64,000 nt of DNA from an uncultured Chloroflexia bacterium (GCA_963813535.1 CAWEZH010000002.1:896001-960000), one strand, 5' to 3'. Positions 1,502-21,689 are shown, counted from the first letter of the stretch. Translations and numbers: made by a program. Notes: generated by a model from the letters alone, not told the origin.

Positions 1502-4500
1502 CTATCTCGGCCGGGCCACGCTCGATGGACAGATATCGCGGAACGGGCAGTAACTGCACGCCATCGGGTCCGGCGTGGCATCGAAGCGTCCTGCGCGGAT
1601 GCCACTCGCCACCGTCGAGATCTGCGTCCGCGCCTTGGCCACCCGCTTCGGATCGACGTCGACCTTGCCGACGAGCCCCGAGTCGAGGAAGTGGAGGGCG
1701 ACCTGGTCGGGCAGGCGGCCGGTCATGGCCTCGTAGCCCATCGCATAGATCTGGAGTTGGAGCGAGTCCCGCGCGCGCTGGCGGGCCTTGGCCGGGTCGC
1801 GCACGTCGGACGTCTTGTAATCGGTGATCGTCACTCGTTCGCGACCCATGATCCCGAGCGTCGGTGTCACGACATCGGCCGTCTGGGCGAGCACTTCCGT
1901 GGCGGAGGGCTGGCTCGTGGCAGCAGGCTCGTCTGCATCGGCAGCGACCTGTTCGATGTCCACCCGGTCCCACCTGCCACGGATCCGGTCGCCATCGAGA
2001 TCGAACGCGAACTCGCGCTCGACGTAGGTCGGGATCACCGCCTCCGGCCGTAGTTGCTCCTCGCGGAAGCGCCGAAGGGCCGAACGCGCCGCCTCGAGCC
2101 GTGCCTCTTCGTGCTCGCGGCTGACGAAGCCCTCGTTGGTCCACGCCGCGTCGAGCACCTCGTCGAGCTCGGCCTCGGACATGACCTGGCCACGTGCATG
2201 GCGGTGGTGGAAGACCTGGACGACCTTGTGCAGAGCCGCGCCATAGATGAGCGCGTGATGCGGCGCCACCGGGATGCGCAGCACATGCGCGTACTTGTAG
2301 CGAAGCGGACAGCTGAGGTACGCGTCGACCTGACCGAAGCTCAGCATCAGCGGCTCGTCACGTCGGACACGAGGAGCCGGCGCCGGGAGATCGACGGTCG
2401 CGAACGTGGCAAGCCGTTCCTCGGGCGCCGGCGCGACCGCCCCGAGACCCGGCGCGACCTCCGCGGCCGGCAGATCGAGGGCCTCGAGCACGAACGGCGA
2501 GACGCGTCGCGCGCGGGCGCCGCCGTAGTCGGCCGCGTGGCTCAGAATCAACTCGTCCCGTGCCCGGGTCATCGCCACGTAGCAGAGGCGTCGCTCCTCG
2601 GCGACCGCCCGCTCGGGCGTCATCGGTTCGCCACGGCCCAGCCCGGCCGGGAGCGGCAGCGGTTCGCCGCGGCCATTGCCCGGGAAACGGCCCGCCACCA
2701 GACCCGGCAGGTAGACGACCGGGAATTCCAGGCCCTTCGCCTTGTGGATCGTGAGGACGGCCACCGCGTCGGCGTCAGGGTCGAGATCAGCTGTCGCGGG
2801 ATCGTCGCCCGCGTCGATCAGGGTCTGGAGATGCTGCGCGACGAAGACCGCCCGGTCGTCGGCGAGGACCGCGGACTGGGCCCGGATCAGGTCGAAGAAC
2901 CGGGCGATGTTGCCGAGCCCCTCATCGGCCGCCGTGGTCGCGGTCGCTGCGAGCCGGGCGAGCAGCCCGCTGTCACGCAGGAAGGCGTACAGCACTTCGC
3001 CGGCGGGCCGCTCCTGGGCCATGACGGCGAACCGGGTGATGTCCGCCACCAGTCGGCGGATGGCCGCGCGTGAGGGCTCGGCCAGCCGCAGGATGCCGGG
3101 CTGCTGCTCGAGCTCCACCACCACGTCCCACGTCGACCGGTTGCGCCGGCGCGCCATGTTGACGATGGCGGAGAGATCCTCGGCGCCGACCGCATATACC
3201 TCGGACGACGCAAGGGCATACAGATCCACGCTCGAGTGCGGGTCGGCGACCGACCGAAGGAAGGCCAGGAGCAACCGGACTTCGGGCCGGGTGTAGAGGC
3301 CGGACGAACCGGAGAACCGCCACGGGACGCCGGCGACGTTGAGGGCGCGCAGGACCGGATCGGCGTGACCGTTCGCCCTGACGAGGACCGCGTGATCGCG
3401 CGGCGGGGCACCCTCGGCGACCCGACGTGCGATGTCCGCGGCGATCCAGTCGGCCTCCTCCGATCCCGTGACGAAGGCCTCCAGTCGCACCCGCGCCGGC
3501 GAGGGCTCGCGGCGCTCCGCCTTGAGACGTTTGGTCAGGCCGGTACGTACCTCCAACCGATCCGGGTCGTTGAACCGGACCAGCCGGTACGCCGCATCGA
3601 GGATCGGTGCCAGGGATCGATAGTTGCGGCGGAGGACGACCGTCCGTGCATCCGGGTAGCGGAGACCGAACCCGAGGATGTTGTCGATCGCCGCACCCCG
3701 GAACGCGTAGATCGCCTGGTCGTCATCGCCGACGACCGTCACGTTCCGGTGCGCCTCCGCGAGCAAGGTGACCAACTCGGCCTGGGCGCGGTTCGTGTCC
3801 TGGAACTCGTCCACGAGGATGTAGCGGAACCGGCCGGCGATCGCGCTCCGGGCGGCCGCTGACTCGCGCACCAGCTGCAGCGCCTGCGCGACCTGGTCCC
3901 CGAAGTCGATGAACCCGTTCGCCGCTAGAAGCTCCTGGTAGCGCGCATAGGCGCGCGCGAGCTCGCCCTGCCGGGCGGCCTCCTCGGCTGGTCCGGCGGC
4001 GGCATCGATCCCGGCTGTCTCGGCGAGCGCCGCCGCCTCCGCCGTCAGCCGGCTCGCATGGTCGATGTACGCGTCCGGGGTGACGTCCTCGTCCTTGCAG
4101 CGGCTGAACAACGTCACGAGGGCAGCCAGGAATCGGGTCGGGTCGCCGAGCGGCCGATAGGCGTCGAGCTCGAATTCGAACAGGTGCTCGCGGAGGAAGA
4201 TGACGCATTCGGCGCGCGACAGCACGCGCACGTCGGGCGGCAGGCCCAGCTCGAGGGCGTGCTCGCGGATCAGCCGGTCTCCGAACGCATGGAAGGTCGA
4301 GATCGCGGTGTCCGTGTAGCCGTATGGCGCCAGCTGGTCGACGCGAACGGTCATCTCGTCGGCCGCCTTGTCGGTGAACGTGAGGGCCAGGATCTCCGAG
4401 GGCTTGGCGCGTCGGGTGGCGATGAGCCAGGCGATCCGGCGGGTGATGACCTGGGTCTTCCCCGTGCCAGCGCCTGCCACGACGAGCAGCGGCCCATCCT

Positions 4501-11218: not shown

Positions 11219-12604
11219 GTGTCGCGATCGCCCGTCGCCGTGGCACGCTCCCCGGTCGACCTGATCCGCTCGCTGATCGACAGGATCTTCCCGCGCGGCG
11301 CGCTGATCCTGTCCGTCCTGAGCTTCAGCTACTTCATCGCCGGGATCATCCGCAACCGGATCTTCGCGAACACGTACGGCGCAGGCCCCGAGCTCGATGC
11401 GTACAACGCCGCGTTCCGCATCCCGGAGATCGCCCTCGACGTCCTGGTGGCGGCGGGTCTGACCGCCCCGTTCGTGCCGATCTTCACCAGCCTCCGCCAC
11501 GACGACGAGCGCTCGGCGAACGATTTCGGCCGGACGGTGCTCACGGTCGCAGTCCTCGTGATGGCGATCGCATCGGTCGGCATCTTCCTCGCCGCCCCGT
11601 GGCTGTCGACCCAGATCGGTGCCGGCTTCGACGCTCCGACCCGCGAGCTGTACGTGACCCTGGTGCGCGTCAACTGCCTCGCCCAGATCCTGTTCGCGGC
11701 GTCCATCTGCCTCGGCGAGATCCTCGTCGCGAATCGGCGATTCCTGTTCTATGCCCTCGCCCCGATCATGTACACGGGCGGGATCATCGCCGGGACGGTG
11801 CTCGGCGCGGAACGGTTCGGCATCGTTGCGACCGCGTGGGGCGCCGTCCTCGGCGCGGCCCTCCACCTGGGCATCCGATCGATCGGGATCCTGCGGACGA
11901 GCTTCCGACCGCGAGTGTCATTTCACGTCCGGACCGGGGCGTTCAAGGAGTTCATCCGGCTGATGATCCCGCGGATGATCAGCCACCCGATCGAACCGGC
12001 GATCTTCACGTTCTTCACGGCGTTGGCGTCGACCATCGTTGTGGGCGGTGTGTCGTCGATCAACTTCGCGCTCGACTACCAGGTCGTCCCGGTCAGCCTG
12101 ATCGGCATCTCGTTCTCGCTCGCGGTGTTCCCGACGCTGTCCACGGCCTACGCCGACCGGGACGGCTCGGCGTTCCGCCAGGTCCTGACGCGCAACGTGG
12201 TGACGATCGGCGCGCTGACGACGATCGCCGCGATCGTGCTGTTCATCGGCTCGGGCATCCTCGTCGAGGTCCTGCTCGGCGGTGGCGAATTCGGCCCGGA
12301 GGACGTCGCCGTCACGTCGGCGATCGTCGCCGCATTCGCGATCTCGGTGCCCTTCGACGCGCTCGCCTATCCCCTCTCCCGCGGCCTGTACGCCACGCAC
12401 GACACGATCCGCCAGGTCGCGGCGTCGTTCGCGGGGTTCGGCGTCGTGCTGGTCGCCTCGACAGCGCTCGCGCCGAACCTGGGTCTGCTGGCGATCCCGC
12501 TCGGATACGCCTCGGGGATGGTGGTCAAGGACGCACTCCTCGTGGCGTTCCTGCTCCCGCGGGTACGGGCGATCGGTCGGGCACCGAGCGCCGCGATCGG
12601 CTAG
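11219..12604 (+). CDS. murJ: Lipid II flippase MurJ/MviN
   Basis: LDAYNAAFRIPE, APFVPIF, AVFPTLS, LSRGLYATHDT; multiple TM segments; GGAGG RBS. Confidence 0.85.
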   Translation: MSRSPVAVARSPVDLIRSLIDRIFPRGALILSVLSFSYFIAGIIRNRIFANTYGAGPELDAYNAAFRIPEIALDVLVAAGLTAPFVPIFTSLRHDDERSANDFGRTVLTVAVLVMAIASVGIFLAAPWLSTQIGAGFDAPTRELYVTLVRVNCLAQILFAASICLGEILVANRRFLFYALAPIMYTGGIIAGTVLGAERFGIVATAWGAVLGAALHLGIRSIGILRTSFRPRVSFHVRTGAFKEFIRLMIPRMISHPIEPAIFTFFTALASTIVVGGVSSINFALDYQVVPVSLIGISFSLAVFPTLSTAYADRDGSAFRQVLTRNVVTIGALTTIAAIVLFIGSGILVEVLLGGGEFGPEDVAVTSAIVAAFAISVPFDALAYPLSRGLYATHDTIRQVAASFAGFGVVLVASTALAPNLGLLAIPLGYASGMVVKDALLVAFLLPRVRAIGRAPSAAIG

Positions 12605-12608
12605 GTGC

Positions 12609-13568
12609 CTAGCCGGTGCCGGCGCGCGCCTTCGTCGGGACGACCGTGATGAACAGACCGTCACGATCCGGGTACTGGCCCTCGGGTCGCTTCCAGCGCA
12701 GGAAGTTGTCCTGGAGCTCGGCGAACTTCGTGAACGTGCCCGGCGGGTTCGAGGCGCCCCAGATCGACGAGATGCGGGGGAACCACGGGTCGAGGATGTA
12801 GGCACCCTCGATCTTGGTGTCCCTGAAGGTCGCCGGGTCGGCGTCGGCGCGGTAGCCGGTCATGACCCAGGTGTGGGCGCCTCGCCACGCGAGCAGGATG
12901 GCCGGCGAGTGGGTCTTCTTGATCGCGACCGCCGCGTCGCGCAGGGCGTACGTCATCGTTTCGAACGCCCGGACCTCGTAGCCCGGCGCGCCGTACGCGT
13001 CGAGGGCGAGCGCCATGGCGCCCGGGCCCCATTCGCCGTTGTGGCTGTCGGAATAGGCTTCCCACGAATGGACCCGGCCGGCGATCTCGCGCTGGGTCGC
13101 ATTCGAGGTGTCGGCGAGACCCATCACGGCGAGCGCCATCTGGACGCCGGCCGGGGCGCACCAGTCGTTGCGGAGCTCGGAGGCGAACACCTTGTCCGGA
13201 TCGCCCCGCACGATGTCCACATCGACGGGCTTCGGCTTCGGCTTTGGGGTCGGGGTGGGCGTCGGGTCGGGTGTGGGGCTCGCGCTCTCGCCCGGTGCAG
13301 GCGTCGCTGGCACCGGCGTGGGCGTGGGTGGCTCGCTCTCGAGCGGCGGCTCCGTGACCCGTACGGTCTCGACCGTTTCCCGATGCGGCACCGGCCCGGC
13401 CATGAAACGCTCGATCCTGCCGACCACCGCCAGCCACTTCTCCCCCGCCCCGAACGCATCGGTGGCGATGGCGAGGGATGTGAGGGTCGCGCCCACGATG
13501 GCGATGCCCACCGCGCCCACCAGGAAGCGCCGGAAGCGGCTGGGGGCGCGGCGGGACGATCGATTCAC
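12609..13568 (-). CDS. Membrane-anchored/secreted papain-fold (C39-like) peptidase with Pro/Thr linker
   Basis: N-terminal TM, PTPTPKPKP linker, WCAPAGVQM (Cys), GAHTWVMTGY (His), ILDPW (Asp). Confidence 0.7.
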   Translation of the reverse strand: MNRSSRRAPSRFRRFLVGAVGIAIVGATLTSLAIATDAFGAGEKWLAVVGRIERFMAGPVPHRETVETVRVTEPPLESEPPTPTPVPATPAPGESASPTPDPTPTPTPKPKPKPVDVDIVRGDPDKVFASELRNDWCAPAGVQMALAVMGLADTSNATQREIAGRVHSWEAYSDSHNGEWGPGAMALALDAYGAPGYEVRAFETMTYALRDAAVAIKKTHSPAILLAWRGAHTWVMTGYRADADPATFRDTKIEGAYILDPWFPRISSIWGASNPPGTFTKFAELQDNFLRWKRPEGQYPDRDGLFITVVPTKARAGTG

Positions 13569-13602
13569 GCGGGATGGGCTCCTGGGGTGCGGGCTGTCAG
13601 GT

Positions 13603-14304
13603 TCAAGACGCTTGGGACCGCCGAGTTGCTACAGCCCGCGGCGCGGCAAGCGCGGCCAGCCGTGCCAGGCGTTCTCTCCATGCGGTCCGATGACTGGCGA
13701 CGTCCGCGGCGTCGGCCAGCTTGACGTGCGTGACCGTCACGACGGCGCGATCGTCGCCCTTCGGGTCGAAGACGACGTTCACGCGCGTGCCCTCGGACGG
13801 GACGTCGAACCGGGCTGCGCGACCCATCGTCCGCGTCCCGGTCCGCATCCGCAGCCCGAGATCCAGCCACGACGCCCGGCGCTTCGGCTCGACGAACGCG
13901 CGCCACGCGTCCATCGATGGCATGTCGATGGTCTTCGAGACGCTGACTTCGAACCCTTCCGGGCGCTGGTTCGGCGCGCGCATGCCGCGCGCGCGCTCGT
14001 AACCGACGGTGACCGACTGCGACCACCAGCCGTCGATGCCGTGTTCGCCGTTCACGTACCTGGCGATCTCCGTGTGGGTGTGCGAGGTGGCGTCCCAGGC
14101 GTCGAGGATCCGGAACCAGTCGTCCCATCCTCGGCCGGTGCCCTTGACGATCGCCTCTTCGGACACGGGTGGTTCGGCAAGCCGGGGTGGCAAAGGGGGC
14201 GGTGCGGGATCACGCATGAGGTTGCGCCGGGCGGCGGCATAGCGCTCGCCGGTCTTCTCCATCCGGGAGCGGACGGCCCGCTTGCGGGCCTTGTCGGTGG
14301 TCAT
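13603..14304 (-). CDS. Hypothetical protein: basic N-terminal helical domain + DUF4287-like + SRPBCC-like domain
   Basis: MTTDKARKRAVRSRMEKTGERYAAARR; KGTGRGWDDWF..HTEIA..HGIDGWWSQSVTVGYER; AGGAG RBS. Confidence 0.8.
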   Translation of the reverse strand: MTTDKARKRAVRSRMEKTGERYAAARRNLMRDPAPPPLPPRLAEPPVSEEAIVKGTGRGWDDWFRILDAWDATSHTHTEIARYVNGEHGIDGWWSQSVTVGYERARGMRAPNQRPEGFEVSVSKTIDMPSMDAWRAFVEPKRRASWLDLGLRMRTGTRTMGRAARFDVPSEGTRVNVVFDPKGDDRAVVTVTHVKLADAADVASHRTAWRERLARLAALAAPRAVATRRSQAS

Positions 14305-14473
14305 CTCGTGTGTCTCCTGACCGGCCGTCGGCCCGGACCCACGCTCCGGAGCCACCGACCGTGGCCAGGCACGAACCGACGACCTCGAGGCGGAGCCCCT
14401 TTGCCTCCACGAGGTCGACAGCGTGAGTGCCGACGACGGAGGTGCGGCGCGAGGTGGCGCCGCCGAGAGGATA
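14305..14473 (-). promoter_or_regulatory. Promoter (-10 TATCCT) and structured 5' leader RNA candidate
   Basis: Stems 14444-14450/14457-14463, 14326-14332/14429-14435, 14338-14345/14420-14427, 14380-14387/14410-14417, 14351-14355/14361-14365. Confidence 0.6.
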
Positions 14474-14576
14474 CGCCGAGGTTCGAAATGGCGTCCAGCA
14501 CGGGTCGACCACGGCCCGAGCGGCTGCCTGTGGCACCATCGACCCCACCGCCACGCCGTCACCAGGAGCACCACCC

Positions 14577-15767
14577 GTGGACCGTTTCGAGCCCAACCTC
14601 CGCATCCCCGGCCCGACGTCCCTGCCGCCCAGCGTGCGCACCGCCGGCGCGCGCCAGATGATCAACCACCGCGGTCCGGAGTTCGCGGCGATGCTCGGCC
14701 GGATCCTCGACGGCATCAAGCCCTACTTCGGGACGACCTCGGACGTGGCGATGCTCACCACCGCCGGCTCGGGCGGGCTCGAGGCCGCGATCGTCAACAC
14801 GCTCTCGCCGGGCGATCGGGTGCTCGGCGTGAGCATCGGCTCGTTCGGCGACCGGTTCGCCAAGATCGCCGGGATCTATGGCGCCGACGTGACGAAGCTC
14901 GACGCGGAATGGGGCTATGCGGCGGCCGCCGATGAGATCCGTGAGCGACTGCGCGGGATGCCCGACACCAGGGCCGTCCTGCTCACCCACAACGAGACGT
15001 CGACCGGCGTCATGAACCCGATCGGCGAGCTGGCGGCGGCCATCCGCGCCGAGACGCCCGACGCGCTGATCCTGGTCGACAGCGTGTCCGGTCTCGGTGC
15101 CGTGCCGTTCGAGATGGACGCGTGGGGCGTCGACGTGGTCGTGACCGGATCGCAGAAGGCCTGGATGGCGGCGCCCGGACTATCGATGATCGCGGCCTCA
15201 CCTCGGGCGTGGGCCGCCATGGAACACGCGAGGATGCCGCGGTTCTATCTGGACCTGCGGTCCCACCGCGAGGCGGCGACGGGCGGAGAGACGCCCTTCA
15301 CTCCGGCGATCGCGGTCGTGTACCAGGTCGACGAGGGCCTGCGCCTCATGCAGCAGGAAGGCGCGGAGGCGATCTTCGCCCGCCACGAGACGTGTGCCGC
15401 AGCAGCCCGGGCCGGGCTGGCCGCCCTCGGCTTCGAGTTGTTCGCCGATGCGCGCCACTACTCGCGGACCGTCACGGCCGCGTCCGTCCCCGACGGCCTC
15501 GACTGGAAGGCCTTCAACGGCGCACTCAAGAAGCGCGGCCTCGTGCTGGCCGGCGGCCAGGGCAAGCTCACGGGCCGTATCTTCCGCCTTGGGCATCTGG
15601 GGTCGGTCACGCTCGAGGAGATCCTCGGGGCTATCGGCACGCTCGAGTCCGTGTCGCTCGACCATGGCCTGCCGATCGACCCGGGCACGGCCGTGGCCGC
15701 CGCCCAGCGGGCTGCCCTCGCCAGCCAGGGCGTCGCACGCCTGTCGGTCGCCGGGACCACCGCGTGA
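14577..15767 (+). CDS. Class V PLP aminotransferase (alanine-glyoxylate/serine-pyruvate family), probable phosphoserine aminotransferase
   Basis: IPGPT, HNETSTG, VDSVS, TGSQKAW (PLP Lys), IFRLGHLG; overlaps serA start (GTGA). Confidence 0.9.
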   Translation: MDRFEPNLRIPGPTSLPPSVRTAGARQMINHRGPEFAAMLGRILDGIKPYFGTTSDVAMLTTAGSGGLEAAIVNTLSPGDRVLGVSIGSFGDRFAKIAGIYGADVTKLDAEWGYAAAADEIRERLRGMPDTRAVLLTHNETSTGVMNPIGELAAAIRAETPDALILVDSVSGLGAVPFEMDAWGVDVVVTGSQKAWMAAPGLSMIAASPRAWAAMEHARMPRFYLDLRSHREAATGGETPFTPAIAVVYQVDEGLRLMQQEGAEAIFARHETCAAAARAGLAALGFELFADARHYSRTVTAASVPDGLDWKAFNGALKKRGLVLAGGQGKLTGRIFRLGHLGSVTLEEILGAIGTLESVSLDHGLPIDPGTAVAAAQRAALASQGVARLSVAGTTA

Positions 15768-17353
15768 AGGTCCTCGTCGCCGAGGAGGTGGCGCGCGAGG
15801 GCATCGATGTCCTGGCGGGGCAGCACGAGGTCGACGAGCGTTTCGGCTGCACGCGCGAGGAGCTCGCGGCGATCCTGCCCGAGTACGACGCATTGATCGT
15901 CCGGAGTCAGGTCCAGGTCGACGCCGGACTCATCTCGGCGGGGGCCAAGCTGATCGTCATCGGGCGAGCCGGTGTCGGCGTCGACAACGTCGACCTCGAC
16001 GCCGCGACGCGCGCCGGCATCACGGTCGTCAACGCGCCGACCGGCAACACGATCGCCGCCGCCGAGCACACGCTCGCTCTGCTCTACGGTGTGGCCCGCC
16101 GGACTGCCGCCGCCGACGCCAGCCTCCGCCGCGGGGAGTGGAAGCGGAGCGAGTTCACCGGGCTCGAGCTCCGCGGCCGCACGATCGGGATCATCGGTCT
16201 CGGCAAGATCGGCCAGGCCATCGCGCTGCGTGCCCGCGCGATGGAGATGGTCGTGCTCGGCAGCGACCCGTACGTCACGGCGGAGCAGGCCGAGAACCAC
16301 GGCGTCGAGCTCATCGACATTCGGACGCTGCTCGAACGCTCGGACGTCATCACGGTCCACGTGCCGCTGACGCGGGCGACCCGTGGCCTGATCGGCAAGG
16401 CCGAGATCGCACGGCTCAGACCGGGATCGATCGTCCTGAACGTCGCACGCGGCGGGATCGTCGATGAGGCGGCAGTCGCGGCGGCACTCGAGTCGGGCCA
16501 CCTCGCCGGCGCCGGGTTCGACGTGTTCGAGACCGAGCCACCGACCGATTCACCCCTCCTGGCGGCGCCGAACACACTGCTGACCCCCCACCTCGGCGCC
16601 TCGACCGCCGAGGCCCAGGTGCTCGTCGCCGAGGAGGTCGCGTCCCAGGTCCTCGACGTGCTCGAGGGGCGTAGCGCGCGCTATGCCGTCAATGCTCCGC
16701 TGCTCACCCCGGAGACCGCGCGAGCCATCGCCCCGTACCTGCCGCTCGCCGAGATCCTCGGTCGGTTCTTCGCCCAGTTCTCGCGTGGCGGTGTCCGGAC
16801 CCTGACGCTGGAGATCGCCGGCGAGCTCGCGGAGCACGACGGCTCACCGCTCACTGCCGCTGTGCTCCGCGGCCTACTGGAGACCGTGACGACCGAGCGC
16901 GTGAACCTCGTCAACGCCGGAGCCCTGGCGAAGGCCCGGGGCATCACGCTGGTCGAGCGCAAGACACGTGACGCAGGCGCCTACGCCGCCCAGCTGACGC
17001 TCTCGAGCGACGGTTTACCAGGCGGCCGCGGCATCACGGTGGGTGGCACGGTCGCGGCCGGCGAGGCGCGCATCACCCGGCTCGGTGCCTACCGGCTCGA
17101 CATGGAGCCGTCCGACGTGATGCTCATCACCCGTCACACAGACAAGCCGGGCATGGTCGGCCGGGTCGGGGCGATGCTCGGCGAGGCCGACGTCAACATC
17201 AGCGCGATGCACCTCGCCCGTACCCGGCCGCGCGAGGACGCCCTGATGATCCTGGCGCTCGACGACGACGTGCCGCCCGGCGTCGAGGCGGCGATCCGCG
17301 ACCTGGACGCGGTGCTCGACCTTTGGACGATCCGGCTCGGCCACGAGCAGTGA
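15764..17353 (+). CDS. serA: D-3-phosphoglycerate dehydrogenase (with ASB and ACT domains)
   Basis: GRAGVGVDNVD, GLGKIG, NVARGGIVDE, TPHLGAST, C-terminal DKPGMVG..NISAM. Confidence 0.95.
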   Translation: MKVLVAEEVAREGIDVLAGQHEVDERFGCTREELAAILPEYDALIVRSQVQVDAGLISAGAKLIVIGRAGVGVDNVDLDAATRAGITVVNAPTGNTIAAAEHTLALLYGVARRTAAADASLRRGEWKRSEFTGLELRGRTIGIIGLGKIGQAIALRARAMEMVVLGSDPYVTAEQAENHGVELIDIRTLLERSDVITVHVPLTRATRGLIGKAEIARLRPGSIVLNVARGGIVDEAAVAAALESGHLAGAGFDVFETEPPTDSPLLAAPNTLLTPHLGASTAEAQVLVAEEVASQVLDVLEGRSARYAVNAPLLTPETARAIAPYLPLAEILGRFFAQFSRGGVRTLTLEIAGELAEHDGSPLTAAVLRGLLETVTTERVNLVNAGALAKARGITLVERKTRDAGAYAAQLTLSSDGLPGGRGITVGGTVAAGEARITRLGAYRLDMEPSDVMLITRHTDKPGMVGRVGAMLGEADVNISAMHLARTRPREDALMILALDDDVPPGVEAAIRDLDAVLDLWTIRLGHEQ

Positions 17354-18171
17354 GCGGTCCGCCTGGCGAACCAACCCCACCGCTCATCCCGGACAGGCTC
17401 GACGCGACGCTCGTGCTGGTTCGCCACGGCGAGTCCGAGTTCATCGTCGAGGGACGGTTCCAGGGGCAGGCCGAGACGCCGCTCTCGCCGATCGGGCTGC
17501 GCCAGGCCGCGTTGCTCGCCGAGCGCCTTGCCCATCCCCACGATCCGCCGGCGCTGCCGTTGCCGACCGGGCCACTCCGCGAGATCGTCCATTCGCCGTT
17601 GCGGCGGACGGCACAGACCGCCGAGGCGATCCTCGCGCAGCTCGATGGCGCGCCGCCCTCACGACCCGAGTCGGGTCTCCTCGAGATCGGGCAGGGCGAA
17701 TGGGAGGGCCTGCACCGCGACGAGATCTCCGCACGGTACGGCGACATCCTGGCGGCCTGGCGGCGGACGCCGACCACGACCTGGGCGCCCGGCGGCGAAT
17801 CGATCGCCGAGGTCCAAGCGCGGCTCCGTCCGGCACTCGGTGAGATGCTCGCGACACTGGCGGAAGGCGGCGTCCCGGGCACGCTGGACCGATCGCAGGT
17901 CGCCGGCTACATGGACGAGCTGCCGAGCCACCCCTGGTCGATCGCCGTCGGCCACGACGGGGTGTTCAAGGTCGCGCTGCTCACGCTGTTCGACCTGCCC
18001 CTCGAGCGGTTCTGGATGTGGACGATGGATCTCGCCGCGATCACCGTCGTCGAATTCCGGGCCGGGCGGCCCGTCCTCCGCGCCCACAACCTCACGGGCC
18101 ACCTCGCCGCACTGCTCGACGAGGCGGCCCAGGAGGAGCAGGAACGCCGCAGCCGTAGCGGGGCGCTATAG
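17350..18171 (+). CDS. Histidine phosphatase family protein, probable phosphoserine phosphatase
   Basis: LVRHGES, SPLRR, GGES, VGHDG; GTGA-coupled to serA. Confidence 0.85.
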   Translation: MSGPPGEPTPPLIPDRLDATLVLVRHGESEFIVEGRFQGQAETPLSPIGLRQAALLAERLAHPHDPPALPLPTGPLREIVHSPLRRTAQTAEAILAQLDGAPPSRPESGLLEIGQGEWEGLHRDEISARYGDILAAWRRTPTTTWAPGGESIAEVQARLRPALGEMLATLAEGGVPGTLDRSQVAGYMDELPSHPWSIAVGHDGVFKVALLTLFDLPLERFWMWTMDLAAITVVEFRAGRPVLRAHNLTGHLAALLDEAAQEEQERRSRSGAL

Positions 18172-19218
18172 GGCAGTCGGCGCGGACGCCTCGCTGGCGG
18201 TGGCGTCGGCGAGGATCGCCTCGACCGCGGCGTGGCCGGGCGTATCGCTGCCCCCGGCGCGGCTCCTCCGGCACAGCTCGAGTGGTGTGAGCCCGGATCC
18301 CGGGTCGCGGAGGTTCGGATCAGCGCCATGGTCCAGCAGGCGCCGGACGCCGGCCGGGCGCCCCTCGCTCGCCGCGGTCCGCAGCGGATGGCCACCGAAG
18401 GCCGGGTCGGTGTCGTCGACCGGCACCCCGACACCGATCAGCCGATCGATGACCTCGAGACGCTGATGGTGCGCCGCCATCACGAGGGCACGAACACGGG
18501 CATCCGGAGGTGTCGTGTCGTCCAACCAGGCGCTGACGTCGCCGGCCGCGGCCGCTTCCTCGATCCCGTGGACCTGCGCCCCCGACGCGATGAGCACGTC
18601 GACGACGGCCGTCATGCCGAACACCGCGGCGTGCAGAAGGGCGGTCCCGCCTGGGATCCCGCCGGCGTCATCGGCCGCCCGAGCCTCGATGTCGGCACCG
18701 GCGCCGATCAGGACGCGGGCGACGTCGGGGTCGCCATAGCTCGCGGCGGTGATCAGCGGCGTCTCGGGGTCACCCGGCTGCCCGTCGACCGGCGCCCCCG
18801 CCGCGAGCAGGGCCGAAGCCATGGCCCCGGTGCGATCGACGTCGCGCCAGGCGCCGCTCGCCGTGTCGAGGCGGAGCATCGCGACGTAGCCCAGTGGTGA
18901 GGCACCCTTGGGATGGTCGCCCCAGTGCTCCATCGTCGTCCACGACAGGTCGGGCTCCTCCGACAGCATCGCCTGCAGCCGTCCGACGTCACCGGCGTCG
19001 AGGATCTCCCGCCGCTCGACGTCGCGCTTGAGGCGAGCCCAGCTCGGGAAGCCGTACTCGCGCGCGATCGCGAGCTGTGCACCGGCGAGCGTCGTCGGGG
19101 CGGAGACGGATCGCAACCGCTCGAGCGCTGGTTGCTCGCCCCCCTTGGCGGCACGGACGAGATCCTTCGCCAGCCGCCGAAGCTGGTCGAGATCAGGACG
19201 GGGTGGCAGCGCCGGCAT
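18166..19218 (-). CDS. Ankyrin-repeat protein with basic helical N-terminal domain
   Basis: LPPRPDLDQLRRLAKDL..LAGAQLAIAREYGFPSWARLK; ankyrin repeats TPLITAASYG, TALLHAAVFG, HPLRTAASEG..GADPN; AAGGAG RBS. Confidence 0.85.
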   Translation of the reverse strand: MPALPPRPDLDQLRRLAKDLVRAAKGGEQPALERLRSVSAPTTLAGAQLAIAREYGFPSWARLKRDVERREILDAGDVGRLQAMLSEEPDLSWTTMEHWGDHPKGASPLGYVAMLRLDTASGAWRDVDRTGAMASALLAAGAPVDGQPGDPETPLITAASYGDPDVARVLIGAGADIEARAADDAGGIPGGTALLHAAVFGMTAVVDVLIASGAQVHGIEEAAAAGDVSAWLDDTTPPDARVRALVMAAHHQRLEVIDRLIGVGVPVDDTDPAFGGHPLRTAASEGRPAGVRRLLDHGADPNLRDPGSGLTPLELCRRSRAGGSDTPGHAAVEAILADATASEASAPTAL

Positions 19219-19358
19219 CGGACGACTCCTTTCGGCGGCCCGTGGTCCGCGAGCAGGGCTCAAGGAGATCGTCGAGCGCGGTCAACGCGATGGGAGGTGG
19301 ACTCGGTCCTGTCCGCGGACCCGGCGGCGCCCTCCCGAACGCCGGGCCGATCCTACCA
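19219..19358 (-). promoter_or_regulatory. Extended -10 promoter (TGgTAGGAT) and structured 5' leader RNA candidate
   Basis: 5' hairpin GGCGUUC-GGGA-GGGCGCC (19343-19326); long stem 19321-19308 / 19257-19244; inner CGCG-UUGAC-CGCG hairpin. Confidence 0.6.
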
Positions 19359-19373
19359 CTGGGCGGACGGGCC

Positions 19374-21689
19374 TCAGCGCCGCCTCACGCCGCGCCGCCG
19401 GCGCCGGCGCGGGATCAACCGCAGCAGTTGGACGCGAAGCCGTCGGTGAGCATGGCGGAGGGAGGCGAGCTGCTCGTCGGGCAGCAGGCGTCCGCCGTAG
19501 GCCACGTCGACCTTGGCCTGGGCCACGGTCTCGAGCTCGGGCCGGACCATGGGTAGCTCATCGGCCAGCGCGCCCGCGTACTCGTACACGGTCTGGGTGG
19601 GGCGCGGCCCGAACCCGAGGCGGCTGGCCAACCGGGCGACCGAGCCATAGGCGTCGTCCGCCGAGATGGGTCCGCGCGGCCCACGGCGCCAGGCGACGGC
19701 CGCCAACGAACCGACGATGACAGCCAGCATGATCGTGATCCCGATGAACAGACCGATCGGCGCCTGGTTCTGCGGCCTCGGGCCGACGGAGCCACCTGGG
19801 CCCGCGTCGGCTTCGTCGCGCGGGATGGTCGGGATCGCGGCCCCGGCGGCGCTGCCCGACGGGCCGGGCGAGCCACTCGCGACCGGCTCGCCCGACGGGA
19901 TCGGCGCCAGCTCAGGCCGCGCCGGTCCACCCGTGGGATCGAAGTCGATCCAGCCGTAGCCCGGGAAGTAGGCCTGGACCCACGCATGGGCGTCCGCACT
20001 CTTGACGGTCCGGCCGTTCCCGATCGGGTCGGGTGTGCCGGGCAAGAAACCCTCGACGAAGCGCGCCGGGATGCCGAGTTCGCGCAGGAAGACCGTCATC
20101 GTCGAGGCGTAGTACTGGCAGAAGCCGGCGCGCGTCTGGACGAAGCACTCGACGATAGACGCGTCGTTGCATTGCCGGGCCTCGTCGGTCAGGTCGGTGT
20201 CGTAGGTGAACTCGCTCGGATCGCGAAGGGTCGTCTCGATCGTGTCCGCAAGGTCGTACGGGTTGTCGCTGGGCGCGGCGGCCTGGATCTCCGCCAGGAG
20301 CGCGCGCGCCGCCGGACCGAGGGCGCCTTCGGGCAGCGCCGCCTTGCCATAGAGCGCCTCGACAGCGGCGGGATAGTCCCGCCCGGCTGCCCGCAGACGT
20401 TCCTGCGTCCAGCCGCCTTGGGCCTCCGACGCGCGGACGAGCGCCGTCACCGTGTAGGTCGCGTCGCTCGCGTCGCGCACGATCCCGCTCAGGAACCCGG
20501 CATCACCGGTGAGGTGCAGCCGCGTCGTCGAGCTGAAGGAGGTCGGCGGACCGGGCACGAAGACCTCCCGCCGCGAATAGGCCGGGCTGATCGTGACAGC
20601 GAGCGACCGCCGCCCATCCGCGGTGACCGCCTCGGCGGTGTCGGCGAGGACGTCGCTGCCTGCTTCACGGACGACCTCGGGACCCTCCGCCCGCCGCCAG
20701 CCTCGGAGCTGGAACGCGTCGTAATAGACCGCGGCGAGGAACGGCGGCGATGGCTCGCCCGACGGGAACTCGACATGGAGCTGCGTCTGGTCGCCGGTCG
20801 ACCAGACGTTCTGGATCACCGACGAGTCGCCGAACGTCGGGCCGAACGATCGACCCGAACGCGACGCCGGCAGGAAGCGCTCGAGGAACTGGCCCCACTC
20901 CACGACGCGGGCCCCGACGTCGGTCCACGCTCCCGCAAGTGGCGCGGACGACGCGACGCCGGTCAGCAGGAGCGACCCGGTGATGGCCGCGATGATGAAC
21001 ACCGTCCCACCCCGGAGATACAACGCCGAGATCGCGGTCGGATCGCCGATCCGTCGGCGCAACCAATCGGCCTGCTCGTCGAGCGTGTGGAACCGGACGA
21101 GCAGGAACAGACTCGCGATCGAGAAGATCACCAGATAGGTCAGCTGGTCGCGGACGGTCAGGGCCATGTTGGCGAGCAGCAGCAGCCCGATGATCACGAC
21201 GGCATTGATCGGCCGGCGATGGCCGAAGGCGGCGTAGCTCGCGAACTGCGACGACCCCCACGTCACGAGACCCAGCACGAGCAGGTGATGCCCGGAGTAC
21301 TGGGTGAAGAGCAGCCCGGCCAGGGCGAGATCGGACCAGGCGCCGACGACCTCGTCCGTCGTCTTCTGGAAGAGGATCGCCGGTGCGGCGCCGGTGGGAA
21401 TCATCGCCCAGCCGACGAGCAGCGGGACCAGCAGCGCGGCGAAGACCGCTCCGACGAGGTGGGTCGTCCAGCGGCCCCATCCCGCGAGCGGGCCGATGAA
21501 CCCGGCGACGACACCGCCGATGGCCGCCCAGAACAGGAAGTCGGTGAGCTCGTCCCGCCCAAGGACCAGCAGCGCGTCGTCGAGCGACCAGGCGAGCGTC
21601 GCGCAGATGAGCAGGACGAGGCCGACCGTGAACCAGCCGTCGAGCCGACGCAGCGAATACATCAGGTCACGTCCGTCGCGGGTGGTCAT
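19374..21689 (-). CDS. Membrane transglutaminase-like protein (TgpA/DUF3488 + DUF4129)
   Basis: Multiple N-terminal TMs; GFCQYYAS, DAHAWVQAYFPGYGWIDFDPT (Cys-His-Asp); TVYEYA. Confidence 0.9.
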   Translation of the reverse strand: MTTRDGRDLMYSLRRLDGWFTVGLVLLICATLAWSLDDALLVLGRDELTDFLFWAAIGGVVAGFIGPLAGWGRWTTHLVGAVFAALLVPLLVGWAMIPTGAAPAILFQKTTDEVVGAWSDLALAGLLFTQYSGHHLLVLGLVTWGSSQFASYAAFGHRRPINAVVIIGLLLLANMALTVRDQLTYLVIFSIASLFLLVRFHTLDEQADWLRRRIGDPTAISALYLRGGTVFIIAAITGSLLLTGVASSAPLAGAWTDVGARVVEWGQFLERFLPASRSGRSFGPTFGDSSVIQNVWSTGDQTQLHVEFPSGEPSPPFLAAVYYDAFQLRGWRRAEGPEVVREAGSDVLADTAEAVTADGRRSLAVTISPAYSRREVFVPGPPTSFSSTTRLHLTGDAGFLSGIVRDASDATYTVTALVRASEAQGGWTQERLRAAGRDYPAAVEALYGKAALPEGALGPAARALLAEIQAAAPSDNPYDLADTIETTLRDPSEFTYDTDLTDEARQCNDASIVECFVQTRAGFCQYYASTMTVFLRELGIPARFVEGFLPGTPDPIGNGRTVKSADAHAWVQAYFPGYGWIDFDPTGGPARPELAPIPSGEPVASGSPGPSGSAAGAAIPTIPRDEADAGPGGSVGPRPQNQAPIGLFIGITIMLAVIVGSLAAVAWRRGPRGPISADDAYGSVARLASRLGFGPRPTQTVYEYAGALADELPMVRPELETVAQAKVDVAYGGRLLPDEQLASLRHAHRRLRVQLLRLIPRRRRRRGVRRR

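Follow-up and report, generated by a model that had tools for sequence, protein, structure and literature searches.

Layout of the locus

The window, by which we mean the whole 64,000-nucleotide stretch of DNA that was analysed, carries two minus-strand genes with structured leaders, gene A (13603-14304, 233 aa) and an ankyrin gene (18166-19218, 350 aa). Their starts had been predicted at ATG 14304 and ATG 19218, where both were indeed found, each backed by homologues beginning at the same residue. The two genes had also been described as carrying different cargo domains, and Pfam agrees, assigning DUF4287-like and SRPBCC domains to gene A and Ank families to the ankyrin gene. The AF2 model of gene A has a mean pLDDT of 92.8, and the top Foldseek match is CalU16 (4fpw_A, E 2.6e-5). 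Another ORF begins 35 nt downstream of gene A. The main features are:

13603..14304, minus strand: gene A, comprising module 1, a linker, a DUF4287-like domain and an SRPBCC/AHSA1 domain (Pfam)
14215..14304, minus strand: coding region of module 1, residues 1-30 MTTDKARKRAVRSRMEKTGERYAAARRNLM, a basic helix-turn-helix hairpin
14305..14463, minus strand: RNA-1, the ~160-nt structured leader of gene A (covariance-model match 14302-14463, which takes in the ATG)
14314..14318, minus strand: Shine-Dalgarno AGGAG of gene A, read from the sequence
14468..14473, minus strand: -10-like hexamer TATCCT of the RNA-1 promoter, located in the sequence
18166..19218, minus strand: ankyrin-repeat gene with module 2 (Pfam Ank families, E down to 1.5e-19)
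19009..19218, minus strand: coding region of module 2, residues 1-70 MPALPPRPDLDQLRRLAKDL...AQLAIAREYGFPSWARLKRDVE, a four-helix N-terminal domain
19219..19343, minus strand: RNA-2, the ~125-nt structured leader of the ankyrin gene (covariance-model match 19216-19343)
19350..19355, minus strand: -10-like hexamer TAGGAT of the RNA-2 promoter, with TGg just upstream, located in the sequence

A common upstream layout of -10 element, GC hairpin, AGGAG and ATG had been proposed and is present at both genes. The GC hairpins begin 6-7 nt past each -10 (14446-14461 in RNA-1, 19326-19343 in RNA-2), and the ribosome-binding motifs AGGAG and AAGGAG lie upstream of the two ATGs. Across the RNA-1 family, a TANNNT box ending 2-10 nt before the model start was observed in 70 of 79 distinct upstream sequences, compared with 23 of 1580 control windows. 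For RNA-2, a TANNNT box lies 2-6 nt before the match start in 16 of 23 members (range scanned, 0-10 nt), and several members also have a TTGACA -35 box. No terminator-like sites were found in either leader. Each RNA begins at a conserved promoter and stops at the start codon.

Structure of RNA-1

The R1 covariance model has a single strong match in the window, at the gene A leader (133.9 bits, E 3.9e-27). The RNA-1 fold consists of five helices and two covarying pseudoknots (PK1 and PK2), the pairs of the latter being absent from the search model. Its elements are:

14446..14461, minus strand: helix P1, GGCGC...GCGCC, with the loop ACCUCG (14450-14455) as the PK1 5' strand
14404..14442, minus strand: helix P2, CCUCCG (14437-14442) with UGGAGG (14404-14409), enclosing P3
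14414..14434, minus strand: hairpin P3, with the loop CUCACGC (14421-14427) as the PK2 5' strand
14396..14403, minus strand: near-invariant CAAAGGGG, from the family alignment and the leader's own sequence
14387..14399, minus strand: hairpin P4, from family pair counts and the leader's own sequence
14382..14387, minus strand: PK1 3' strand CGAGGU, pairing with the P1 loop
14333..14349, minus strand: hairpin P7, with the loop GCGUGGG (14338-14344) complementary to the P3 loop

Across 80 members, 92.3% of cells are paired. Shuffling gives 80.2%, none of 500 shuffles reaching the observed value, and slid partners give 38-49%. Both-sided changes occur at 27 of 38 pairs, including both pseudoknots, and are seen in some members at 5 of 6 P2 pairs and all six P3 pairs. 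The covariation score is 0.368, against 0.150 for shuffled alignments, and again none of 500 shuffles scored as high. PK1 columns alternate between CG, UA and UG (at one pair, 45 CG, 23 UA and 7 UG). PK2 is a kissing-loop pseudoknot between the P3 and P7 loops, with 98.2% of cells paired over its 7 pairs and with matched variants CUCACGC/GCGUGAG, CCCACGC/GCGUGGG, CCCCAGC/GCUGGGG, UCCCCGC/GCGGGGA and CCUGCGC/GCGCAGG. When the leader is folded as a single sequence, its MFE structure joins CCUGGCC to GGUCAGG, and the latter overlaps the Shine-Dalgarno sequence. Over the family, anti-SD pairing averages 6.18 bp within a member's own sequence and 6.07 bp in mismatched controls.

Structure of RNA-2

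At the ankyrin leader the R2 covariance model has its only match in both the window and the whole genome (89.7 bits, E 3.4e-14). Its elements are:

19326..19343, minus strand: hairpin P1, with the loop GGGAGG (19331-19336)
19331-19336 with CCUCCC at 19292-19297, minus strand: pseudoknot PKa, from per-sequence helices (6 bp in the leader's own sequence)
19244..19321, minus strand: long-range helix P2, GGUCCGC (19315-19321) with GCGGACC (19244-19250), enclosing P3
19299..19309, minus strand: hairpin P3, inside P2
19221..19273, minus strand: SD-sequestering stem, anti-SD GACGAUCUCCUU (19262-19273) with AAGGAGUCGUC (19221-19231)
19256-19259 (GCCC) with 19238-19241 (GGGC), minus strand: P5, extending the SD stem, its loop carrying the P2 3' strand

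RNA-2 pair counts give 84.0% paired, compared with 75.4% after shuffling (0 of 500 shuffles as high) and 39-50% with slid partners; the covariation score is 0.326 against 0.199 for shuffled alignments, likewise with 0 of 500 as high. P2 is paired in 91.4% of cells and P3 in 100%, the latter alternating among GC, AU, CG and UA. PKa averages 5.05 bp with its own partner and 4.25 bp with mismatched partners, its variants including CAGG/CCUG, UUUGGGG/CCCCGAA and GUGGG/CCCGC. The anti-SD:SD helix reaches 9-11 contiguous bp in most members, with flanking compensatory changes; it shows both-sided changes at 7 of 10 pairs and averages 8.45 bp with its own partner, compared with 6.78 bp for mismatched partners. 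The real folds of RNA-1 and RNA-2 are thus pseudoknotted, and the single large closing stem with inner hairpins of the original prediction has to be given up.

Two distinct RNA families

Single-sequence folding gives z-scores of -1.71 for RNA-1, a stability equalled by 8 of 200 shuffles, and -0.45 for RNA-2, equalled by 58 of 200. By this measure the leaders do not stand out from chance, as had been expected of them, but by comparison they decisively do, since both match conserved, covarying families. The conserved, covarying structure anticipated upstream of homologues was found for both RNAs, and we conclude that the two leaders are local copies of two real, widespread structured-RNA families.

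Known families were searched for with Rfam 15. Scanning window positions 12500-21000 at E<=10 returned three weak matches only, two of them outside both leaders, and scanning eight diverse RNA-1 loci at E<=5 returned nothing at the leader. The third, to an archaeal snoRNA model at the RNA-2 5' end, was rejected, its 18.7 bits (E 8.8) falling well below that model's gathering score of 42. That the leaders belong to no named RNA family therefore agrees with Rfam 15, over eight loci and the window for RNA-1 and over the window copy for RNA-2. Tandem Repeats Finder detected no repeat array of the kind seen in type III toxin-antitoxin RNA in 14305-14463 or 19219-19343.

The leaders had been taken for one system seen twice. 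However, R1 fails to match the ankyrin leader at a threshold as loose as E<=10, and R2 matches the ankyrin leader alone; with covariance models that do not cross-match, RNA-1 and RNA-2 are analogous rather than homologous. The motif CACCUCC was correctly noted in both (CACCTCC at 14438-14444 and 19293-19299), but its reading as a mimic of the 16S anti-SD tail is not supported, as it is a base-paired strand that covaries with its partner in other members: the P2 5' strand in RNA-1, and a strand pairing with the P1 loop in RNA-2. The window holds 20 copies of CACCTCC, against 11.5 +/- 3.4 expected.

N-terminal modules and their cargo

Module 1 is a short basic peptide, with K or R at 10 of residues 1-27 as read from the sequence, and its AF2 model places helices at residues 3-18 and 22-30. 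Its alignment has 16 invariant columns, including K8, R12, R14, K17, Y22 and R26. The profile recovers 3110 cluster representatives at E<=0.001, almost all from residue 1, and in viral contigs only one partial match was found among 11 pattern stretches. Entropies at codon positions 1, 2 and 3 are 0.49, 0.35 and 1.00, and as many as four synonymous codons encode the invariant Arg residues; the third-position value indicates that selection on module 1 acts on the peptide and not on the RNA.

Of 401 Chloroflexota genomes, 25 carry module 2. AF2 models it as four helices (mean pLDDT 83.5), and in one relative it matches positions 5-85 of Pfam Glyoxalase_8. The model shows no likeness to known RNA-binding folds. 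The two modules are unrelated (hhalign probability 0.28%), and no relatives of known structure were found for either. A short basic helical module on both proteins is therefore an accurate description of module 1 but not of module 2, which is a four-helix domain of ~70 aa.

Cargo differs within each group. Module 1 precedes two main families, DUF4287-SRPBCC and BtrH-like (BtrH_N+DUF4872), and also DnaJ and GerE; module 2 precedes at least four types (ankyrin, SAICAR synthetase, APH kinase and DUF5655+DUF5990).

Each RNA is coupled to its own module

Module-first loci for RNA-1 were fetched via the 30-aa module of gene A, giving 80 loci from six phyla as titled in the records. RNA-1 is present in all 80, with scores from 150 down to 25 bits; it adjoins the start codon in 76 and lies just upstream in four divergent loci. 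When searches began from RNA-1 instead, module 1 followed 18 of 19 new matches, the exception being the weakest. For the second pair, RNA-2 was found in 20 of 25 module-first loci, and module 2 followed all eight new matches of RNA-2-first searches (Actinomycetota and a Gemmatimonadales genome). Two of the five loci that have module 2 without RNA-2 hold the nearest orthologues beyond the genus (76% aa identity), and these five indicate that the protein can do without RNA-2. RNA-1 was never seen with module 2, nor RNA-2 with module 1.

That the RNA would track the module rather than the cargo was the central expectation, and it is borne out over two main cargo families for RNA-1 and at least four cargo types for RNA-2. 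The genome analysed here itself has exactly two RNA-1 copies, one per cargo family. Related genomes in these counts are non-independent samples, and the recurrence of few cargo families per module across phyla means that part of the association reflects common descent. RNA-1 subtypes also track cargo lineages across phyla; for example, UAAAGGGG usually accompanies BtrH-like cargo, and CAAAGGGG that of the DUF4287 type. These observations show that each RNA is coupled to its own N-terminal module, with the cargo differing by gene, and they point to leaders and modules forming a portable RNA-plus-peptide control unit common to several bacterial phyla.

Proposed function and alternatives

The best explanation, in which binding is what we infer, is that each module recognises its own leader and autoregulates translation, a reading to which we give slightly less than an even chance. 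The module would recognise its cognate leader, probably on emerging from the ribosome, and its binding would stabilise a fold that hides the ribosome-binding site, so that translation of the gene would be self-limiting. Together, the promoter, the leader and the module would make a self-contained expression-control unit that could be placed before different proteins. In favour are the strongly basic make-up of module 1, its selection as a peptide, and the anti-SD:SD helix of RNA-2, which could serve as a translational platform for such control; counting against autoregulation are the nearly equal own and mismatched anti-SD pairing in RNA-1, the absence of a known RNA-binding fold in module 2, the lack of structurally characterised relatives for either module, the loci with module 2 but no RNA-2, and the share of the association that reflects common descent. 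A broader and more doubtful proposal is that several high-GC phyla use orthogonal "RNA-peptide handshakes", in which a nascent tag reads its cognate pseudoknotted leader and either sets translation or keeps the RNA bound. If true, this would be a modular, cargo-independent control cassette with two unrelated examples here, and more pairs may exist.

Alternatively, each RNA could be a small-molecule or ion riboswitch, the module binding or responding to that signal too, be it a nucleotide second messenger, a xenobiotic or another compound, without RNA-module contact. The cores of both RNAs are aptamer-like, with pseudoknots and high conservation, the SD-sequestering helix of RNA-2 resembles a classic expression platform, and several cargoes resemble handlers of small molecules or antibiotics: the SRPBCC (START) domain closest to CalU16, the APH kinase, the BtrH-like proteins and the glyoxalase-type match to Glyoxalase_8 would also fit a shared small-molecule signal, which counts against module binding. 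However, the downstream genes are metabolically incoherent (ankyrin, SAICAR synthetase, DUF5655/DUF5990, DnaJ, GerE), gene context points to no ligand, and a riboswitch alone leaves unexplained why the first 30 or 70 residues best predict the RNA type. We regard this alternative as unlikely.

The leaders could also be operators for a separate trans factor (protein, sRNA or ribosome), the modules having an unrelated job such as localisation, docking or acting as a degradation tag, with promoter, leader and first codons linked merely as one inherited or recombined block. Leader and module are contiguous, so duplication or 5' exchange would move both; the pairing of UAAAGGGG and CAAAGGGG subtypes with BtrH-like and DUF4287 cargo fits old vertical lineages, and RNA-2 can be lost while module 2 is kept. 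This view nevertheless appears distinctly unlikely, as two unrelated RNA-module pairs are equally strict, module 1 never occurs without RNA-1 in its module-first loci despite deep divergence, and no candidate factor was seen.

A working ribonucleoprotein is improbable, in which the 5' leader, possibly released from the mRNA by processing, would remain attached to the module and serve the cargo as scaffold, guide or cofactor. The cargo domains have no evident nucleic-acid activity, module 2 proteins occur without RNA-2, and each RNA runs into the SD and start codon, free-standing copies never having been found in the genomes searched; these points weigh against the resemblance of a structured RNA just upstream of an ORF with a dedicated N-terminal domain to RNA-guided systems, and against folds more elaborate than those of most protein-binding operators. 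Finally, self-cleaving ribozymes or other catalytic or processing 5' UTR elements are very improbable for one or both RNAs, since no Rfam ribozyme family matched and the link to the modules would be left unexplained, although double pseudoknots in which near-invariant nucleotides are left unpaired, like CAAAGGGG in RNA-1, are characteristic of small ribozymes.

Comparison with known systems

Like riboswitches, the leaders have a promoter-proximal, conserved, pseudoknotted and covarying fold in the 5' UTR, an SD-sequestering helix (in RNA-2) and a distribution over several phyla. They differ in matching no Rfam family and in the genes that follow, which share an N-terminal peptide and do not centre on one metabolite or pathway.

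In IscB/OMEGA systems, the protein gene directly follows the sequence encoding the omega-RNA. Both arrangements place a large structured RNA just 5' of the ORF and include an N-terminal domain dedicated to that RNA, but here the cargo has no nuclease or other nucleic-acid enzyme, there is no guide segment, and the RNA contains the gene's own SD.

Arginine-rich-motif peptides bind RNA hairpins, as in phage lambda N with boxB and in HIV Tat/Rev. For module 1 only, a short basic helical N-terminal peptide and an RNA on the same transcript are shared with this type. Those RNAs are small hairpins serving antitermination or export, whereas here the folds are pseudoknotted, span 125-160 nt and adjoin the start codon, and what follows the peptide in the same protein is an enzyme or a binding domain. 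An antitermination context of the lambda N type was not found for the leaders, which lack terminator-like sites and form a multi-helix pseudoknot, and module 1 is nearly absent from viral contigs.

Autogenous operators of ribosomal proteins and tRNA synthetases (such as the S15, L20 and S6:S18 leaders) are structured, often pseudoknotted RNAs in the 5' UTR of their own gene. Here, in contrast, the presumed binder is a small N-terminal module on non-ribosomal cargo, there are two orthogonal module-RNA pairs, and there is no known primary RNA target for the leader to mimic. In both cases a structured 5' UTR RNA lies at or over the SD and co-occurs with the gene of its presumed binder, and negative translational feedback is expected.

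Two minus-strand genes with leaders and their surroundings

Two minus-strand genes with leaders lie either side of a plus-strand serine-type cluster, which contains a class-V aminotransferase, the long ORF 15122-17353 and a histidine-phosphatase gene. The features considered here are as follows.

13603-14304, minus strand: gene A, 233 aa, with DUF4287 and AHSA1/SRPBCC matches, both weak
14305-14463, minus strand: RNA-1, the leader of gene A
18166-19218, minus strand: ankyrin-repeat gene, 350 aa
19219-19343, minus strand: RNA-2, the leader of the ankyrin gene

The sequence features originally listed for both leaders (-10 hexamers, a GC hairpin 6-7 nt after, a Shine-Dalgarno (SD) sequence, ATG and CACCTCC) were all found. 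The gene A leader is located in a divergent intergenic region, and the ankyrin leader occupies 155 nt past the stop of a transglutaminase-like gene on the same strand (19374-21689). For the plus-strand aminotransferase, the most likely start is GTG 14577, with AGGAG ahead of it, and not the first in-frame GTG (14427); this start leaves ~100 nt (14474-14579) between the RNA-1 promoter and the aminotransferase for the latter's own promoter. Gene A may not be monocistronic, since another minus-strand ORF (12609-13568), weakly matched by Peptidase_C39_2, begins 35 nt past its stop.

The leaders were predicted to fold better than shuffled sequences. Judged singly, they did not bear this out (gene A, z -1.71, equalled by 8 of 200 shuffles; ankyrin, z -0.45, 58 of 200), and such a comparison is uninformative here because the sequence is 72% GC. 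Consensus promoter and terminator scans, which demand a strong -35/-10 pair, returned no sites in either leader region. As anticipated, no named RNA family was recovered, Rfam 15 giving no match to RNA-1 (nine members) or RNA-2 (window copy). Given the weak folding z-scores and the lack of an Rfam family, the comparison was moved to related genomes.

A conserved RNA precedes module 1 genes

Searching 60 relatives with gene A recovered orthologues and also, through its first ~30 residues alone, a second family of ~451-aa proteins with BtrH_N and DUF4872, one member of which is encoded in the window's own genome. The ~160 nt ahead of genes for this N-terminal part (module 1) is visibly conserved in both cargo families, cargo being the protein part behind the module. 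In the predicted fold, hairpin P1 forms at the 5' end right behind the -10, followed by P2 (CCUCC with GGAGG) around hairpin P3. After P2, a near-invariant (C/U)AAAGGGG opens hairpin P4, and a variable region, hairpin P7, the SD and AUG follow. Two pseudoknots are predicted: PK1 joins the P1 loop to the segment immediately 3' of P4, and PK2 joins the 7-nt loop of P3 to that of P7, to which it is perfectly complementary.

A covariance model of RNA-1, R1, was built from nested helices only; since the pseudoknots were left out, the alignment is not fitted to PK1 or PK2. R1 gives a single strong match in the window (14302-14463, 133.9 bits) and exactly two in the whole genome (G000), one for each cargo family.

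G000:C2:1231155-1231322, plus strand: second RNA-1 copy, 149.2 bits, ahead of a 451-aa BtrH_N + DUF4872 protein starting with module 1 (locus L047/L027)

The window also has a weak R1 look-alike (3835-3959, minus strand; E 0.096, 14.1 bits), probably due to chance, in which a GGCGAACGGG segment accompanies a P1-like hairpin.

Pairing was counted over the full structure, including both pseudoknots, in 80 further members (76 distinct rows). The predicted covariation was observed, with 92.3% of alignment cells paired against 80.2% in shuffles (0/500 as high) and 38-49% with slid partners. Both sides change in 27 of the 38 pairs, and PK2 is 98.2% paired, with the matched variants CUCACGC/GCGUGAG, CCCACGC/GCGUGGG, CCCCAGC/GCUGGGG, UCCCCGC/GCGGGGA and CCUGCGC/GCGCAGG. 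Family-wide anti-SD pairing averages 6.18 bp with the own partner and 6.07 bp with mismatched partners. In a close relative (L003:2197-2382, minus strand), an extra ~24-nt GC hairpin stands between the P2 5' strand and P3, the remaining fold being the same. Neighbour-gene clustering around RNA-1 loci was dominated by spurious long ORFs of high-GC DNA.

A second RNA precedes module 2 genes

The ankyrin gene has only one close orthologue among the 60 relatives, in which leader and coding sequence are equally similar (90.4% each), a comparison silent on structure. The first 75 residues were used as a query against 400 Chloroflexota genomes. Of 401 genomes, 25 encode module 2, the ~70-aa N-terminal part of the ankyrin protein, at the start of variously sized proteins; two of those counted, G329 and G286, are unpublished and their loci were left unused, and the Actinomycetota tally below is the only other claim that depends on unpublished genomes. 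A second conserved RNA, RNA-2, is common to the window's ankyrin leader and the leaders of distant members.

The predicted RNA-2 fold includes a pseudoknot, PKa, between the purine-rich loop of hairpin P1 and a CCACCUCC-type segment 3' of hairpin P3; a long-range helix, P2 (GGUCCGC with GCGGACC); and P3, which covaries (GGAC/GUCC, GGGC/GCCC, GGGU/ACCC). A long stem pairs a CU-rich anti-SD with the SD and is extended by P5, whose loop holds the P2 3' strand. The anti-SD:SD helix has 9-11 contiguous pairs in most members, with compensatory flanks, and averages 8.45 bp with the own partner against 6.78 bp with mismatched ones. These comparisons establish an SD-sequestering stem in the predicted RNA-2 fold. 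Covariation was again found, based on 22 distinct sequences: 84.0% of cells pair on the model alignment against 75.4% in shuffles (0/500) and 39-50% with slid partners. The RNA-2 covariance model, R2, matches only 19216-19343 in the window, and only this site in the whole genome.

Thus, comparative analysis establishes two conserved predicted folds and backs both RNAs strongly, although single-sequence folding statistics alone would have discarded them. On this evidence, they are two widespread classes of structured RNA with predicted double-pseudoknot folds and no Rfam 15 match.

The RNAs follow the modules

Each RNA was predicted to follow its module and not the cargo, a test set beforehand. 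A module-first scan with one genome per species yielded at least 599 pattern stretches for module 1, at least 477 of them confirmed, and the best 80 were used. Their record titles place them in Chloroflexota, Actinomycetota (Nocardiopsis and Planobispora among them), Gemmatimonadales, Myxococcota, Acidobacteriota and Planctomycetota. An R1 match was present upstream on the plus strand in all 80 of these best loci (E 4.5e-30 to 1.4e-3, R1 and R2 E-values being rough because model calibration was shortened). It reaches the start codon in 76 and ends 6-90 nt short in the divergent loci L099, L109, L110 and L120. Searches in the opposite direction agree in 18 of 19 new matches.

RNA-first searches with R1
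151 Chloroflexota genomes: 6 R1 matches (2 own, 4 new); module 1 behind 3/4 new
Planobispora genome: 2 new R1 matches; module 1 behind 2/2
151 Actinomycetota genomes: 20 R1 matches in 16 genomes (tally including unpublished genomes), 13 examined; module 1 behind 13/13

The sole exception is the weakest Chloroflexota match (39 bits), which has no AAAGGGG core. The Actinomycetota matches left out comprise four from unpublished genomes and three already known.

For RNA-2, the module-first search found the RNA in 20 of 25 usable loci. It is missing from L136, L137, L144, L148 (a broken gene) and L157 (a doubtful protein match); outside the genus, no ankyrin orthologues are closer than L136 and L137 (76% aa identity), which have kept module 2. 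At these two loci, a strong unrelated hairpin, CUCGACGCAGGCA...UGCCUGCGUCGAG, replaces RNA-2 ~170 nt upstream of the ankyrin start. RNA first, all six R2 matches in the 151-genome Chloroflexota sample lie directly 5' of module 2 genes, all of them training-set members. Module 2 also stands behind all eight new matches, three from Planobispora and a Gemmatimonadales genome and five from the 151 Actinomycetota genomes. Taken together, these counts establish, at the level of sequence comparison, that each fold is paired with its own distinct N-terminal module across differing cargo.

The modules and their cargo

Module 1 comprises the N-terminal 27-30 residues (consensus MTTxKAFKRxVRARMxKTGERYAAARR), with 16 invariant columns. 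Judging by its codons, module 1 is under selection at the peptide level. Conservation as RNA instead of peptide was ruled out by the codon-position entropies (0.49, 0.35 and 1.00) together with the invariant arginines, which use up to four synonymous codons. Against 1.84 billion cluster representatives, the module 1 profile gave 3110 matches at E<=0.001, 338 of which reach E<=1e-10; almost every one of the best 150 begins at residue 1. AlphaFold2 predicts a helix at 3-18, a turn and a helix at 22-30.

Among 30 module 1 locus proteins, the cargo is DUF4287 and/or SRPBCC-type in 17 and BtrH_N/DUF4872 in six, with no family in seven; among 60 representatives, it is BtrH_N in 16, DUF4287 in nine, DnaJ in one and GerE in one, with no family in 33. 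The C-terminal domain of gene A has a START/AHSA1 fold, best matched by the enediyne-resistance protein CalU16. A PDB sequence search with module 1 gave no match, and viral contigs gave one partial match in 11 pattern stretches. At one Gemmatimonadales locus (L104:1501-1674, plus strand), RNA-1 is followed by a 58-aa ORF consisting of module 1 and a short tail; the gene either is truncated or encodes a module-only protein.

Module 2 cargo is mostly ankyrin repeats and elsewhere DUF5655+DUF5990, SAICAR synthetase or an APH kinase. The Pfam Glyoxalase_8 model spans module 2 in the APH-kinase protein, and at L160:1495-2700 (plus strand) module 2 corresponds to roughly the first 85 positions of Glyoxalase_8 (PF20066). 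This model seems to merge a portable module 2 with a glyoxalase-fold domain. Save for the overlap in L160, NCBIfam and Pfam hold no family for either module itself. In genus g54 of the same phylum (L147, L150-L155, L159), module 2 and RNA-2 go with a ~420-aa PurC-type SAICAR synthetase; this cassette occurs in at least eight genomes, with a full TTGACA-17-TATAAG-type promoter and a housekeeping-type enzyme as cargo. The module 2 model has four helices (mean pLDDT 83.5). It had no informative structural neighbour (nothing at E<=0.001 with Foldseek; best VIA-align Z 4.4), a result that indicates neither a new fold nor a function. The PDB sequence search gave one weak match (9s82_A, 'JUBO2', E 0.0025), a name present in the full text of four papers, all of them irrelevant, and the ESM Atlas gave unnamed clusters only (best score 0.90).

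Several cargo domains resemble handlers of antibiotics or xenobiotics (the CalU16-like START domain, the APH kinase, the Glyoxalase_8 model and BtrH-like acyltransferases or peptidases), which could hint at a common stress or small-molecule theme.

Relation between the pairs and candidate functions

R1 does not match the ankyrin leader even at E<=10, and RNA-1 and RNA-2 give no cross-matches, so homology of the two leaders was rejected. By profile comparison, the modules are likewise unrelated (hhalign probability 0.28%), and no crossed RNA/module pair was seen in the loci examined. The shared layout proposed for the two leaders holds in that both have a promoter-proximal hairpin with a pseudoknot-forming loop, a compact fold, the SD and ATG; the RNAs being unrelated, the likeness is one of analogy. 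The reading of CACCUCC as a mimic of the anti-SD has to be abandoned. Its structural role differs between RNA-1 and RNA-2, and in other members it is replaced together with its partner, which argues against an anti-SD mimic.

Our leading explanation, to which we give slightly less than an even chance, is autogenous translational control. Once made, each module would recognise its cognate leader RNA (putative binding) and stabilise the fold that occludes the SD, thereby limiting its own translation. Against this reading, RNA-2 is dispensable in some lineages, anti-SD pairing in RNA-1 is about as long with mismatched partners as with the own one, neither module resembles a known RNA-binding domain, and each module is found chiefly with a handful of old cargo families, so that related genomes inflate the coupling counts. 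A small-molecule riboswitch, with the module sensing the same signal, is unlikely but deserves some weight. Behind it we place, with little credence, operators that serve a different trans factor, the leader and its module being simply inherited as a unit. A working ribonucleoprotein is improbable, and a ribozyme very improbable.

Regardless of mechanism, the RNAs offer a first clue to the function of two N-terminal modules that are so far uncharacterised. If the modules do bind their own leaders, they would constitute compact, naturally orthogonal RNA-peptide pairs that make expression self-limiting for any protein placed behind them; bacterial gene control would then gain a new design principle, and synthetic biology a ready-made tool.

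Full-text literature searches gave no description of RNA-1 or RNA-2, of DUF4287/DUF4872 leaders or of the modules, and neither did term look-ups in the main text of three bacterial RNA motif catalogues (PMC5737381, PMC11109978, PMC8632094), although catalogue supplements may include motifs of this sort. Among known systems, autogenous protein-binding leaders come closest; here, in contrast, the putative binder is a fused, cargo-independent N-terminal module, and there are two orthogonal pairs.
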